Both the position numbers and the translations under genes were made by a program. This document shows, piece by piece, positions 679 through 6,589 of a stretch of 6,712 nt of DNA. Source of the DNA: a virus. Under the pieces are notes generated by a model, which did not search any database, had not been told where the DNA came from, and worked only from the letters and a program-made list of their open reading frames with translations. The DNA is taken from IMG/VR virus record IMGVR_UViG_3300018405_000745, positions 1 through 6,712 of that record; one strand, written 5' to 3'. Within the stretch, counting starts at the first letter, position 1, and every line of letters starts with the position of its first letter.

Positions 679-914
679 GATGCCGCTTCCTGGGCTTTCC
701 AGATTGCAACGTCTACGTCATCGAACTCTTCAATTTGCAAAAGCCCAGCCGCATAAAGGGCTTGTGCGAAACCGCGCAACCGTTCCGGCTTTAGCTCGCC
801 CCGAATCGCGTCATCTAGGTAGGTATCGAGCACTTCATTTAGCAGGTTCGTTCTGTCCAGGCCTAGGAAGTGGTATAGATCGTTCAAAGCGGGGAGCAGG
901 TTAAGGCGTTTCAT
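675..914 (-). CDS. 79-aa acidic hypothetical protein (MKRLNLLPALNDLYHFLGLD...), the first gene of the accessory pair
   Basis: The ATG at 914-912 is preceded by AAGGAG (923-928) at 8-nt spacing. The gene lies downstream of a perfect TATAAT. Its stop overlaps the next start. I count about 14 D/E against 8 K/R. The track's 173-aa version begins at a TTG inside zot and is not favoured. Confidence 0.65.
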   Translation of the reverse strand: MKRLNLLPALNDLYHFLGLDRTNLLNEVLDTYLDDAIRGELKPERLRGFAQALYAAGLLQIEEFDDVDVAIWKAQEAAS

Positions 915-939
915 TGCAGTCTCCTTGGTTCGTGCCCTA

Positions 940-967
940 ATTATAGTAACGTTACCGTAAATGTGAT
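940..967 (-). promoter_or_regulatory. Candidate sigma70-type promoter of the 79/122-aa operon
   Basis: The minus strand has a perfect -10 TATAAT (plus-strand 940-945). The best -35 is ATCACA (962-967), 4 of 6 matches with a 16-nt spacer. The spacer consists largely of the GTAACGTTAC palindrome. Confidence 0.55.
945..963. promoter_or_regulatory. Promoter-proximal operator-like repeat AGTAACGTTACCgTAAATG
   Basis: A 19-nt direct repeat of 1008-1026 with one mismatch. It contains a 10-bp perfect palindrome and sits between the -35 and -10 elements. Confidence 0.6.
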
Positions 968-1007
968 AATTACATATTCCTATCAGAGCAGAGCGTGCAA
1001 TAGACAA

Positions 1008-1026
1008 AGTAACGTTACCATAAATG
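1008..1026. promoter_or_regulatory. Promoter-distal operator-like repeat AGTAACGTTACCaTAAATG
   Basis: It lies 63 bp (about six helical turns) from the proximal copy. It overlaps the zot stop codon (1015-1017). Confidence 0.6.
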
Positions 1027-2283
1027 GCCGGGCTTGCCTGATCCGACCACGACGATATCCGAAGTAGACGAACCCTCAAGCTGCGCACCTCTGGCCACGC
1101 GATCTGCGCCAAGGCTATCGACGGTGCGTCGATCGACACGACCACGGATATCAATAGGCCACGATCTGGCGACGTAAGCGACGGATTGTTTCTCAAGCAA
1201 GAGGCCGTATCCGGTCCTGGTCACAGTCCAGCCCAGGGCCTGAATCTCACTCACGCGGAAACGTTCCTTGATGTGATACGACGAATCGAGCAGCTCGATC
1301 TCGCCCATCAGCTCGCGACCGGGCTTATCACTATCGATGATGGCGGTGGCCCTGATCTGATACTGCTGAGCCATCTTGTCCAGGTAGTCGATTGGTGGAG
1401 GAAGCGCGTCTACCTTCTGATCGGTGGCGGATGCAGCAGGTGCACTCGCCTGCATGGATGGCGGCTCGGGATTGGTGAGCCCGGATGACGGCTCGACGCG
1501 CTGGACAGTGACAGCCGATGAAGGCTGCGTAGATGCAACGGCCCCGCCCGTTCCGGTGAAAAACCCATAGAGGTGATACACGGCGTAGATCGCGCCAACG
1601 AAAACGAATGGCACGCCTAGGGAGAGCAGCTTAGAGTTCTTCAGAACGTTGGTGCGCTCGGTCTGGTAGACGCTGCCCTTGACCGTCTCGCGACGGTGAC
1701 TGGAGTAGAGCCCGAAATAATTCGAGTCGTAGGAGCGGACGCCAGAGCCGATCTTGACGAACTTGCCCTTCGCCTGTTTTTGCCATTGCTCCCACTTGTA
1801 CTGATTGGGTCGGCCAACCGCCTGAAGTTTGAGGAAATAGATGATGTCCTCGATCCGGCTGCGGATGATCTTGTGCACGTCATCGCGGTCCTGACCCATG
1901 ATGACGATCTCTAGCCCGCGGTGCCGGTGTTCGGTCCAGAACTTTTGCTGGTTGAGCGGCAGCTTGTAGTTGCCGCTCGGAAAGTAGTCCTGAATCTCGT
2001 CCCATACGATCATCGCGTTATCAGGCGTCTTGTCGGCGAACTCGTTCTTCACGCGCTCGATGTCACCGGCTGCGCCATCCTGCTCAGCAGGCTCGACGTA
2101 GATGAGCAGCATGCGGACGTACTCGACAGGCTCGTCGAGGAGCTGGGCGAACTTCTCCCAGTTGATGCCGCGAATATTGGTAACGACCTGACGGCCTGCC
2201 TTCAAGGCGGGCAGGATGTGAAAAACGCAGGCTTCGTAGCTCTTGCCAGCTCCCGGCAGCCCCTCGTGGAAGTGGATAGCCAT
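1015..2283 (-). CDS. zot: pI/Zot-family morphogenesis NTPase, 422 aa
   Basis: The N-terminus MAIHFHEGLPGAGKSYEA carries a Walker A motif, GLPGAGKS (nt 2239-2262). The Walker B motif is MIVWDEIQ. A single TM segment, LLSLGVPFVFVGAIYAVYHLYGFF, falls mid-protein and is followed by a P/S/A-rich linker and a C-terminal domain. The ATG lies 3 nt after the pVI-like stop, with an AGGTGG Shine-Dalgarno element. Confidence 0.93.
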   Translation of the reverse strand: MAIHFHEGLPGAGKSYEACVFHILPALKAGRQVVTNIRGINWEKFAQLLDEPVEYVRMLLIYVEPAEQDGAAGDIERVKNEFADKTPDNAMIVWDEIQDYFPSGNYKLPLNQQKFWTEHRHRGLEIVIMGQDRDDVHKIIRSRIEDIIYFLKLQAVGRPNQYKWEQWQKQAKGKFVKIGSGVRSYDSNYFGLYSSHRRETVKGSVYQTERTNVLKNSKLLSLGVPFVFVGAIYAVYHLYGFFTGTGGAVASTQPSSAVTVQRVEPSSGLTNPEPPSMQASAPAASATDQKVDALPPPIDYLDKMAQQYQIRATAIIDSDKPGRELMGEIELLDSSYHIKERFRVSEIQALGWTVTRTGYGLLLEKQSVAYVARSWPIDIRGRVDRRTVDSLGADRVARGAQLEGSSTSDIVVVGSGKPGHLW

Positions 2284-4163: not shown

Positions 4164-4436
4164 TTACTCCTCGATGGTTAGTGGTTCGGCGCGTGAGTTG
4201 ATGTAACCCACAACTACGCCGAATCCCCAGGCGGTGAGCCAGAGGATCAGGGGCAGAGACAAACCAGCCATAAAAGCGGTCTGGATCGTCTCCGAATCGG
4301 GCATTGCAAAAAGAGCCGCCAGCGTGGGAGTTGCGGCGTATTCCTCAGCAGTCATAAGCGCGTAACCGGCACAGGCAGGCGAGTACTCGCCAACCACACG
4401 GATCGAATCAGCTACGACCTCAACGCAGAGGCTCAT
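4164..4436 (-). CDS. 90-aa hypothetical membrane protein (possible minor virion or assembly protein)
   Basis: The ATG overlaps the stop of the 32-aa ORF (ATGA). The C-terminal TM segment is AFMAGLSLPLILWLTAWGFGVVVGYI. The gene lies in the structural module between the ssDNA-binding and coat genes. Confidence 0.6.
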   Translation of the reverse strand: MSLCVEVVADSIRVVGEYSPACAGYALMTAEEYAATPTLAALFAMPDSETIQTAFMAGLSLPLILWLTAWGFGVVVGYINSRAEPLTIEE

Positions 4437-4531
4437 GGCCGAAGCTCACGACGAACGAAGGCCAAGGCGGCAACACCACCAGCGAGGGTGGCGAAGAGCC
4501 AGAACGTGGCCGAGAGGCTGGCGGAGAGCAT
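4433..4531 (-). CDS. 32-aa hydrophobic peptide MLSASLSATFWLFATLAGGVAALAFVRRELRP, pVII/pIX-like
   Basis: I translated this by hand and it is not in the track. The ATG shares one base with the TGA of the upstream gene (TGATG). Its stop overlaps the next ATG. It has a single TM segment and a basic C-terminal tail, with the size and position typical of the small Ff tip proteins. Confidence 0.5.
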   Translation of the reverse strand: MLSASLSATFWLFATLAGGVAALAFVRRELRP

Positions 4532-4863
4532 CAGGCGGTCGCCGGCTGCTGTTGACGGGAAACGGCGAAGAGGTTCACGTTCTGAACCTTGGTTAGCCCG
4601 GTCAGCGTCAGGGTCGCTTTACCCTGTGCACCTGGACGAGAGCCGAAGTCCAAATCGAAGAGCGCGGGCAACTTGGCGTCGCGCAGGCGGTCAATCAGCG
4701 CACAATCGGCGCTAACCTTGGTGGGTTTGAATCCGAAACTACCGGCGGTGTCTTCGCGGTAGTCGTTGACGTACCAGACGGAAAGACCCTTGCGAATTTC
4801 GCCGGTTTTTTCGTCGGGCATTTCCCAGCTATCACACGAAAGGATAAGGGCGCGTTCTGCCAT
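4531..4863 (-). CDS. Putative ssDNA-binding protein (gene V analogue), 110 aa from the ATG at 4863
   Basis: It is the first gene of the structural operon, in the position of gene V, and its size is appropriate. A GAGG Shine-Dalgarno element lies 9 nt upstream of the ATG. The function is inferred from synteny only. The track start at 4878 is a TTG. Confidence 0.5.
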   Translation of the reverse strand: MAERALILSCDSWEMPDEKTGEIRKGLSVWYVNDYREDTAGSFGFKPTKVSADCALIDRLRDAKLPALFDLDFGSRPGAQGKATLTLTGLTKVQNVNLFAVSRQQQPATA

Positions 4864-4898
4864 GACAATAAACCTCAATTAGTGGTCGGAGCACCTGA

Positions 4899-4918
4899 AC
4901 GTCAAGTGCGCTTGACGT
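4899..4918. promoter_or_regulatory. Perfect palindrome ACGTCAAG-TGCG-CTTGACGT, operator-like, in the divergent intergenic region
   Basis: The arms are 8 bp with a 4-bp spacer. Each arm contains TTGACG, a -35-like hexamer, reading outward on its own strand. Confidence 0.5.
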
Positions 4919-4948
4919 AAAGTAGCCTTAACTATTGCGGGAGTCAAC

Positions 4949-5326
4949 ATGCACGAAAAGAGCCCACCAACTACCGTCGAGTGGTTGGATTTGGTGAAGG
5001 AGCGTTGCGGAGTCGGGAGTGACTACAAGCTGGCCGAGCTACTGGGCGTCACACGCCAAGCAATCAGCCAGCAGAGAGCGGGGAAGCAGTGCATGTCGAT
5101 CATGTCAGCAGTGCGAGTTGCCGAGGCGCTGAAGCTGCCTTCGCAGGCCGTGATTGCTGGCGTGATGTACTACGGAGACCGGGAGACGAATCGCGGATTT
5201 TGGGCGGATCGATGGGCCCGTGCATGGCCAGCAGTTCAAAAACGAATCGTGCAACCGCCTCATGGCCACCAGTCTCAGCCAATCGGAGCAGAACAGCGCG
5301 CGCCTGATATGGCTGGCGAAGGATGA
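4949..5326 (+). CDS. HTH DNA-binding regulator (XRE/CI-like repressor candidate), 125 aa
   Basis: The helix-turn-helix reads DYKLAELLGVTRQAISQQRAG. A GGGAG Shine-Dalgarno element lies 5 nt before the ATG. It is the only credible plus-strand gene and is divergent from the structural operon, like repressors of temperate inoviruses. Confidence 0.75.
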   Translation: MHEKSPPTTVEWLDLVKERCGVGSDYKLAELLGVTRQAISQQRAGKQCMSIMSAVRVAEALKLPSQAVIAGVMYYGDRETNRGFWADRWARAWPAVQKRIVQPPHGHQSQPIGAEQRAPDMAGEG

Positions 5327-6470
5327 TCCGCCACTGATCGCGGGTGACCTGCGAGACGCGCAAAGCGGTAGCAATCTCTTCCTGGTTGATTTCCTCATCG
5401 GTCTGGTCGGCGATCTGAAAAAGCGCCTTGAGGCCGGGAGTCCAGCGAAGCTGGTTGTAGCCCTTGAATGCAGCAGAAAACTCAGCAAACAGCGCGCCGG
5501 AACGGGCATCGCCTTCGGCGTAGGAGCGGAGCAGATCAAAGGGCGTGCGACCCTTGCCAGTCCCGCGCTTGGAATTCGCCTTGGTCACTTCGCTGGCCGC
5601 TTCCCATCGGGGTTCGGTGCCCCACTTGGCGACATACTCCGCAGCCGACTCGGCCTGCTGAATGTGCACGCCACGCTCCCTGGACGGAGCCGGGAGACCA
5701 GCAGCGACGGACGAAGTTTTCCAGACGGCAAACAGCAGGCGATGGAGCATGGCGCGCTGGCGAACCGTCAGCGGCTCGGGGAACAGCCAGAGTTCGTGGA
5801 AGTGCGGGTGCCAGCCGTTGGCGTTACCGTGCGTTACCTCTAAGGCCCGAATCGAACCCACCACGTCGAACAACTCGCGGAGGTGCTTGTAATCGCGATG
5901 CTCGCGCATTTTCTTCGTCGCTACGCGGAGCTTGCCCATCAGCTCGGAAAGCACATCCATGCGCGCATGGCGCACAGTGAGCGTGACCATTTCGACCCCG
6001 CCACCGGCTGAAATGTGCGTGTCGATTGCCTGACGCACTTCCAGTTTGCGACGTTCCGAGATTTTGGCGGAGCAGATCGGGCAGGACCAGACAGAAGAGC
6101 AGGTCTGAAGGCCCGAGTAGTGAGCCTTGCCAGTGGCGGAATCCTTCAGGATGCCGACAAACCCGTCCTTGTTGGTGAGCGTTCGAATGCAATGCCTGAC
6201 GCGATGGTCTGGCAGGAGCCGCCGAGCGGCGTCCTGAAGCGAAAAACGCGCTTCGCGGGCCTGTTCTGGCGTGAACTCGGGTACAAACTCACGACGCTTG
6301 TTGTCGAACGTAAACCGTTGAATTTCCCCGGTTTTCTCGTCGACAACCTCCTTAATTCTGGCCGCGAATTTCGCAGTAGTAACAAGGGCGCCTCCGGCGG
6401 CCCGCGCTTCGCTTGCGGGACCGCCCGGATGCGCCTTTCGCACCTGGGCGCTTTCTGTTATAGAATCCAC
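5100..6470 (-). CDS. HUH-superfamily rolling-circle replication initiator, 456 aa with a GTG start
   Basis: The motifs run in the order CSSVWSCPIC (Cys cluster), VTLTV, HPHFH (HUH, nt 5796-5810), then AAEYVAKW (candidate catalytic Tyr, nt 5634-5636). This order resembles pC194/pUB110-type (Rep_1-like) initiators. The start is uncertain. The GTG at 6470 has GAGG 7 nt upstream, and no ATG occurs before residue 161. Confidence 0.85.
   Translation of the reverse strand: MDSITESAQVRKAHPGGPASEARAAGGALVTTAKFAARIKEVVDEKTGEIQRFTFDNKRREFVPEFTPEQAREARFSLQDAARRLLPDHRVRHCIRTLTNKDGFVGILKDSATGKAHYSGLQTCSSVWSCPICSAKISERRKLEVRQAIDTHISAGGGVEMVTLTVRHARMDVLSELMGKLRVATKKMREHRDYKHLRELFDVVGSIRALEVTHGNANGWHPHFHELWLFPEPLTVRQRAMLHRLLFAVWKTSSVAAGLPAPSRERGVHIQQAESAAEYVAKWGTEPRWEAASEVTKANSKRGTGKGRTPFDLLRSYAEGDARSGALFAEFSAAFKGYNQLRWTPGLKALFQIADQTDEEINQEEIATALRVSQVTRDQWRIILRQPYQARAVLLRLAETGGHEAVARFVFELLAMHGPIDPPKIRDSSPGLRSTSRQQSRPAKAASAPRQLALLT
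5821..5838. repeat. Tandem GCGTTACC-GT-GCGTTACC, period 10
   Basis: There are two copies of the CGTTACC half-site found in the AGTAACGTTACC motifs. They lie inside rep, encoding HGNAN just upstream of HPHFH. Confidence 0.5.
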
Positions 6471-6492
6471 TTCAGGACCTCGACCGTCCGAG

Positions 6493-6543
6493 CCCCGCGA
6501 ATCGTTTAGCCGGCAAGCAAACGAGCAATTCGCGGGGTTTTTT
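6493..6543 (+). terminator. Long hairpin plus T6. It is an intrinsic terminator for plus-strand transcription, or an ssDNA or leader structure just upstream of rep.
   Basis: CCCCGCGAAT (6493-6502) pairs perfectly with ATTCGCGGGG (6528-6537). An inner stem pairs CGTTT with AAACG. TTTTTT follows at 6538-6543. No T-tract follows the hairpin on the minus strand. Confidence 0.55.
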
Positions 6544-6589
6544 ATTGCCTTGCCGTCAAGCGATCTTAACGGCTCCGTGTCGCCTATCC

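Follow-up and report, generated by a model that had tools for sequence, protein, structure and literature searches.

The stretch of DNA analysed here (the window) is a complete IMG/VR virus record of 6712 nt, and represents a minimal inovirus, or small filamentous phage. Direct terminal repeats are present in the record, and the genome is therefore taken to be circular. On the minus strand the genes follow the order rep, a gene-V-like gene, a small coat-like ORF, g3-like, g6-like, and zot. The sole convincing plus-strand gene is the ORF at 4949-5326, which encodes an HTH regulator; it converges on rep and diverges from the gene-V-like gene. The features discussed below are as follows.

4531-4863, minus strand: gene-V-like (ssDNA-binding-like) gene, an ORF with its function assigned from gene order only
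4899-4918, both strands: perfect 8-4-8 palindrome, a candidate operator in the 85-nt divergent region between the HTH gene and the gene-V-like gene
4939-4943, plus strand: Shine-Dalgarno-like GGGAG, 5 nt upstream of the HTH ATG, conserved in phage blackswan219-6
4949-5326, plus strand: HTH regulator gene, 125 aa, Cro/CI (Xre)-type
4949-5251, plus strand: HTH folded part, residues 1-101, six helices in the AF2 model
5252-5326, plus strand: HTH run-on tail, residues 102-125 and the stop TGA (5324-5326), pLDDT ~51, without secondary structure
5100-5326, both strands: convergent coding overlap of the HTH gene and rep, 227 nt, from the ORF list
5103-5222, minus strand: Rep C-terminal tail, residues 417-456, predicted disordered, overprinting HTH helices 4-6
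5106-5120, minus strand: beta-clamp-binding-like motif Q451-L-A-L-L455, before the last residue (T456), from sequence and enrichment
5100-6470, minus strand: rep, HUH rolling-circle initiator of the Rep_1 family, 456 aa
6490-6545, plus strand: terminator-like hairpin followed by U6, -27.4 kcal/mol, z -2.87, 20 nt beyond the rep start codon

The HTH protein matches phrog_4441 (E 7e-18, residues 8-75) and phrog_638 (E 1.8e-13, residues 10-92), while its matches to Pfam HTH_3, P22_Cro, and Phage_CI_repr are weak and below the curated cut-offs. It has 591 relatives at E<=1e-3, and the homologous stretch ends at query residues 85-100. The AF2 model, with a pLDDT of ~90 or more over residues 10-100, contains helices at residues 9-20, 25-32, 36-43, 51-61, 65-76, and 82-101. 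A Foldseek comparison of this model against the PDB returned no match at E 0.001 or better; the best matches (C.BclI, CylR2, the P22 c2 N-terminal domain, and HigA) have a probability of ~1.0 and E values of at least 0.02, and the top matches are all Xre-type HTH proteins, in keeping with a five-helix HTH fold. This predicted core is shared with the Xre/Cro/CI regulators (P22 c2, the 434 repressor, the C-proteins of restriction-modification systems, and HigA), whereas the extra sixth helix (82-101) and the unstructured run-on tail set the window's protein apart from them. The possibility that the HTH ORF is a chance antisense ORF was ruled out by the coding pattern in its non-overlapped half, by these relatives, and by a good ribosome-binding site. 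A second small regulator cassette lies at 310-914, downstream of zot, and encodes a 122-aa protein which matches phrog_10506 over its first 54 residues only.

Rep matches Pfam Rep_1 (PF01446) over residues 128-254, at 46.8 bits against a cut-off of 33.2, and phrog_11698 (E 1.7e-78). Its HUH motif, HPHFHE (H221, H223, H225, E226), is invariant in 20 homologues along with Y279 and K282, and Y279 is the likely catalytic tyrosine. Pseudomonas putida and Azotobacter chroococcum are among the organisms from which related Reps have been recorded. In a 20-sequence Rep alignment, conservation stops at approximately residue 415-425; beyond this point the tails differ in both length and sequence, some homologues end directly after the conserved core, and many members of the family are without any tail. 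AF2 folds Rep through a helix at residues 402-416, which places the end of the fold at nt 5223, and residues 421-456 have a pLDDT <50 and no secondary structure. Near the N-terminus, Rep (6320-6342) has the peptide DEKTGEI in common with the gene-V-like protein (4794-4816), and T47, G48, E49, I50, and Q51 of this region are invariant across 20 homologues; a partial duplication could account for the shared peptide, or it could serve in ssDNA binding or in an interaction.

In bacteria and phages, long antisense coding overlaps are seldom found and often met with doubt. A sequence-only reading of this DNA had described such an overlap at 5100-5326, and the two ORFs (plus strand, 4949-5326, 125 aa; minus strand, 5100-6470, 456 aa) confirm it; all of the peptides quoted in that reading are likewise present in the ORF translations. 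The overlap is tail-to-tail and ~75 codons long. We analysed 177 loci, from viral, genome, and metagenome collections, which encode Rep relatives and contain the rep end. An HTH homologue lies antisense at the rep 3' end in 20 of the 177, and Rep is at least 44% identical to that of the window in all 20. A comparable overlap, of 224-299 nt, is present in at least nine relatives, down to ~65% nucleotide identity, and the arrangement is alike in the nearest deposited phage, blackswan219-6 (MZ474488), at ~80% nucleotide identity across this region. The lengths of the overlap among these loci are listed here.

Close clade and L121: 227 nt
blackswan219-6 (L001): 224 nt
L122: 299 nt
L126: 179 nt
L131: 138 nt
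L125, L127, L128, L170, L039, and L133: 10-41 nt
L130 and L132: none

Both frames are open over the shared DNA in the nine relatives (224-299 nt) and in L126 (179 nt), and the indels among relatives within the shared stretch are of 3 or 6 nt. The comparative loci were obtained from a related-locus search together with one GenBank phage, with the Rep homologues P0005-P0040 (54-89% identity) left out, and the set comprises 9-10 sequences, six of which are >87% identical. These comparisons show the antisense coding overlap to be real and conserved among relatives. In L130 (1918-2130) and L132 (1372-1584), the HTH homologue is a 70-aa ORF which ends inside the HTH motif, with 138 nt separating it from rep, and might represent a regulator that has been broken or truncated.

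In the shared DNA, HTH codon position 1 is paired with Rep position 1, HTH position 2 with Rep position 3, and HTH position 3 with Rep position 2. Mean pairwise diversity in the close clade is given below, in the order HTH 1/Rep 1, HTH 2/Rep 3, and HTH 3/Rep 2.

HTH-only, 4949-5099:.120,.051,.228
Overlap, 5103-5225:.056,.053,.167
Overlap, 5226-5323:.054,.268,.009
rep-only, 5327-5580:.049,.259,.011

The constraint changes frame at ~5225, and the HTH frame dominates to the left of this point and the Rep frame to the right. Third codon positions vary most in the HTH-only part, and Rep second positions vary most in the Rep tail region, while the diversity pattern in the HTH tail region matches that of the rep-only region. 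Constraint is clear for both folded cores, the HTH tail is without detectable constraint of its own, and the constraint on the Rep tail is limited to openness and the end motif. The folded parts meet at ~5223-5251 (Rep fold end, 5223; HTH fold end, residue 101 or nt 5251), a zone whose extent fits the overlaps of 10-41 nt seen in the sister lineages. The sequence-only reading had each gene's tail lying over the other's folded part, with a switch at ~5218; this geometry is upheld by the AF2 fold ends, by the codon-position flip, and by the ends of homology, which fall at residues 85-100 of the HTH protein and at about residue 415 of Rep.

The two halves of the overlap are unequal. When the Rep protein is held fixed and its codons are redrawn synonymously, the HTH frame stays open for at least the observed 32 extra codons in 88% of redraws, and the length of the HTH tail is therefore set by the sequence of Rep. 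The position of the HTH stop is similarly forced: TGA at 5324-5326 is the antisense of the Rep codons ATC ATC (Ile-Ile), and in L122, where Leu-Val replaces Ile-Ile, the HTH ORF continues for 24 more codons. The HTH protein varies in length among relatives (124, 126, 131, and 146 aa), and is 100-109 aa long in the short-overlap relatives. From these sequence comparisons, the HTH tail looks like a passive, unselected run-on of ~24 residues. In the chance test of the full-length overlap, only one half, the Rep tail side, exceeds chance. Consequently, the 'reciprocal overprinting' of the sequence-only reading holds in part, in that the Rep tail appears selected for openness and its terminal motif, and fails for the HTH tail, which is passive and unconstrained.

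The HTH gene and the gene-V-like gene diverge from a control region which is largely conserved in blackswan219-6, and the MZ474488 homologue of the gene-V-like gene is annotated from the identical ATG. Judging from its position between the two genes, the palindrome is most likely where the regulator would act; a promoter scan found none in this region. The RNA or RNA-like evidence consists of contigs from four runs, which derive from relatives at 90-99% identity and are strandless. The RNA-run contigs over the gene-V-like gene stop at 4893-4900 in two studies, and those of a probable DNA run continue across, which hints, weakly, at a separate start for the gene-V-like operon beside the palindrome. 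Metatranscriptome contig depth, itself a poor measure of expression, is ~130-160 over the gene-V-like region (4433-4894) and ~3-10 over rep and the HTH gene (5015-6400); relatives' RNA-run contigs cover 4992-5438 at low depth, strandless. A gap over 4918-4991 and contig starts at 4992-5016 were rejected as evidence, given that contigs from relatives provide neither strand nor ends.

The position of the regulator has parallels in Ralstonia phages. The HTH protein is related to ORF13 of RSS30/RSS0 (32% identity over 75 aa, E 2e-4), a reverse-oriented, proposed immunity or regulatory factor (PMC3816273), and in phiRSM, ORF15 is a reverse-oriented repressor between a pII-like rep and a pV-like gene (PMC3816273). 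Like the window, phiRSM thus has a reverse-oriented repressor between the replication gene and the ssDNA-binding-protein gene. The phages phiRSS0 and phiRSM differ from the window in that their descriptions mention no long overlap of the coding regions with rep, and in that the window's Rep belongs to the Rep_1 family; the phiRSS0 ORF13 is 156 aa long, with attP (dif) at its 3' end.

This layout invites a regulatory reading of the overlap. The sequence-only reading had raised forced head-on transcription as a possible switch between lysogeny and replication. In a fuller form, the HTH mRNA would be antisense to the 3' end of rep or to all of it, and through polymerase collision or an RNA duplex either the regulator or the replicase would be made, but not both, so that the phage would choose bistably between quiescence and replication. 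The convergent layout is indeed conserved throughout the clade. A terminator scan of both strands found none convincing between the HTH gene and rep, and the weak terminator-like sites occur inside rep only, about as many as in shuffled sequences. With the strong plus-strand hairpin at 6490-6545 lying past the rep start, an HTH transcript could extend antisense over all of rep, and the hairpin could be the end of that transcript, or it may instead serve in packaging or as an origin. Switches based on convergent transcription exist elsewhere, scbA/scbR being one example (PMC3134472). However, convergence is kept at overlaps of 299, 227, and 10-41 nt, and at zero overlap, which argues that the coding overlap is not the selected feature. 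Convergence is thus ancestral to the clade and independent of the long overlap; head-on transcription follows from the layout, as had been proposed, but is not created by the overlap. Furthermore, Rep synonymous sites under the HTH tail have no extra conservation (diversity of 0.268 vs 0.259 in the rep-only region), and an integrase was not recognised among the genes scanned in the window by Pfam and PHROG profile searches, so that 'lysogeny' is not established. A literature search, with subscription journals largely outside its reach, found nothing directly relevant on convergent overlaps in inoviruses. We consider it unlikely that such a switch accounts for the overlap, although it is compatible with the explanation favoured below and both could hold.

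The simplest alternative to any function is neutral compaction, whereby a deletion joined the two genes, both tails are unselected read-through, and the Rep ending QLALL is a coincidence of a conserved HTH helix read backwards. The HTH tail behaves exactly in this manner, and drift is seen over most of the Rep tail, where variation peaks at Rep second positions. A locus from a compost metagenome, L126, also conforms to it: the abutting geometry is alike, Rep stops 17 codons earlier, and its tail of ~21 residues, which is without a terminal motif, looks like the neutral expectation. This locus is a natural 'no-motif' control. For the window, by contrast, synonymous redraws with the HTH protein held fixed leave the Rep frame open for 41 codons in only 3.4% of cases (median 20), and place a clamp-like motif within the last 12 residues in 0.02%. 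In all nine aligned relatives with a long overlap, of which two have 65-70% identity, the Rep frame is open throughout the HTH core. Two observations on the motif, described next, also count against coincidence: its Q, L, and L residues are fixed through HTH third positions, and like motifs end Rep tails which are unrelated and lie clear of any other gene. Neutral compaction of the whole overlap is therefore improbable in our assessment, somewhat more so than the switch. The comparisons instead indicate that the Rep tail is under selection to remain open and to end in its terminal motif, a pattern which HTH coding does not explain.

The Rep of the window ends R-Q-L-A-L-L-T, and those of close relatives end QLLLLT, QLGLRL, and QLALSL-GHS. 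In more distant Reps, whose unrelated tails lie clear of the HTH gene, the endings are KQFNLFRNYF (L125) and SQMRLI (L128), and further endings in the Rep family include PQLSLF, GQLSLFG, RQLALF, FQLQLF, and QIALPLS. We searched the last 12 residues of 262 non-redundant Reps for a loose form of the motif, Q[LIVMFA]x[LMIF](x)[LFIM]. It occurs in 45/262 C-termini, whereas shuffled sequences average 2.5 occurrences and never exceed 8, and other, upstream 12-residue windows have 0-10; a strict version occurs 34 times vs 0.7 expected. When one representative per tail cluster is used, the motif occurs five times vs 0.34, and none of 1000 shuffles gave more than 3.

In the window, the second codon positions of Q451, L452, and L454 (nt 5119, 5116, and 5110) are the third positions of the HTH codons V57, R56, and A54, which are fourfold-degenerate (GTN, CGN, and GCN) in the aligned relatives. 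These three sites are invariant in 9/9 sequences, two of which are at 65-70% identity, and neighbouring third positions vary; with 9-10 sequences available, six of them >87% identical, this invariance is suggestive and not decisive. A strict count of fourfold sites gives 4/12 invariant in the overlap vs 0/8 outside, numbers too small for a firm statistic. Because the key motif residues rest on HTH third positions that look freely changeable, the two functions should be separable by mutation.

The sequence QLALL fits the clamp consensus, having Q at position 1, L/M at position 4, and a hydrophobic residue next, and it is sited in a predicted disordered terminus; its fifth position is L and not the preferred F. 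The reported clamp-binding consensus is Q-L-S-L-F/L, in which Q1 and L4 are the most conserved and key residues, and motif forms include QL[SD]LF or QLxLxL (PMC3971601). HUH transposases of IS91 and IS200 have been reported to bind the clamp, and C-terminal clamp motifs were speculated to be easily deleted and regenerated de novo (PMC3971601). On the basis of this resemblance, QLALL is a candidate peptide for docking onto the beta sliding clamp of the host. As in clamp-binding replication and transposition proteins, a Q-L-x-L-[LF] peptide stands at a flexible C-terminus that is variable, and that has apparently been lost and regained. In contrast to the known clamp motifs, the candidate motif of the window is encoded antisense to the folded domain of another gene. 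A literature search, again with subscription journals largely outside, found no clamp motif described in filamentous-phage or Rep_1 initiators, and the candidate clamp-docking Rep end, antisense over HTH helix 4, would thus be a new element. The motif may be dispensable in some lineages, as L126 is without it and many Reps are tailless. Very improbably, the terminal motif could be functional in another capacity, as a degradation tag or as a docking site for a helicase, SSB, or other host factor: hydrophobic C-terminal endings (here -LALLT, -LRL, and -LFRNYF) are also compatible with protease-recognition tags, but the recurrent Q-x-x-L core, with its invariant Q, its disordered terminus, and near-consensus QLSLF in some relatives, is the pattern that defines clamp-binding motifs and not known degrons (PMC3971601).

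The explanation we favour for the locus as a whole, and regard as fairly probable, is one of two unequal halves: a passive HTH tail, and a Rep tail with a clamp-docking end. In the left half (~5103-5222), HTH helices 4-6 are the constrained reading, and the Rep tail would be a flexible linker of ~40 residues, free to drift provided that it stays open and ends Q-L-x-L-L. The docking peptide would couple the nick made by Rep to the loading of the host polymerase. In the right half (~5252-5326), the last helices of Rep are the constrained reading, and the HTH ORF continues until the first stop that the Rep amino acids permit (ATC ATC, read as TGA).

In the Rep tree, a long-overlap clade consisting of L122 and seven others is nested among relatives with overlaps of 10-41 nt, and L125 is sister to this clade (support 100/99). 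The tree was midpoint-rooted and L126 was left out, for which reasons the direction of change is inferred; with that proviso, the long overlap appears to be derived, the sister lineages having overlaps of 10-41 nt. The Rep of L125 carries its motif on a tail of ~33 residues with DNA of its own, and the tail of the window cannot be aligned with it. The simplest reading, and probably the origin of the long overlap, is a two-step route in which the HTH gene would first have come to abut the Rep core, and a Rep tail would then have been re-created across the HTH gene, with the motif re-evolving. Among the classic overlaps of ssDNA phages are gII/gX and gI/gXI of Ff, and A/A*/B/K of phiX174. The overlap in the window shares with these the compaction of the genome (here ~6.6 kb), the use of two frames, and an asymmetry between older and newer constraint. 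The classic overlaps are same-strand, whereas that of the window is antisense and tail-to-tail, and far exceeds the 10-41 nt of its sisters.

There are enough relatives of this locus to tell the selected reading part by part, making it usable as a worked example in which one tail is a passive by-product and the other apparently a short functional motif of recent making. Should binding of the Rep tail to the clamp prove real, a host-recruitment step would be added to rolling-circle replication in a large group of environmental inoviruses, and the high variability of Rep tails in the family would be explained. A wider proposal is that the Rep_1 initiators of many filamentous phages may recruit the clamp through a C-terminal peptide which is repeatedly lost and re-invented, here by reading a repressor backwards; we advance this tentatively, with confidence slightly below the midpoint.

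The same arrangement bears on how these genes are catalogued. In the deposited record MZ474488.1, the HTH gene (863-1252, minus strand) is without annotation, and the annotation of rep, which spans 1-1086 on the plus strand, begins at an internal ATG (199-1086), as the gene is cut by the origin of the record. Protein collections based on gene calling contain three HTH homologues vs 885 Rep homologues. Given this rarity, and the gene missed in MZ474488, regulators overlapped in antisense are probably under-counted in inoviruses.
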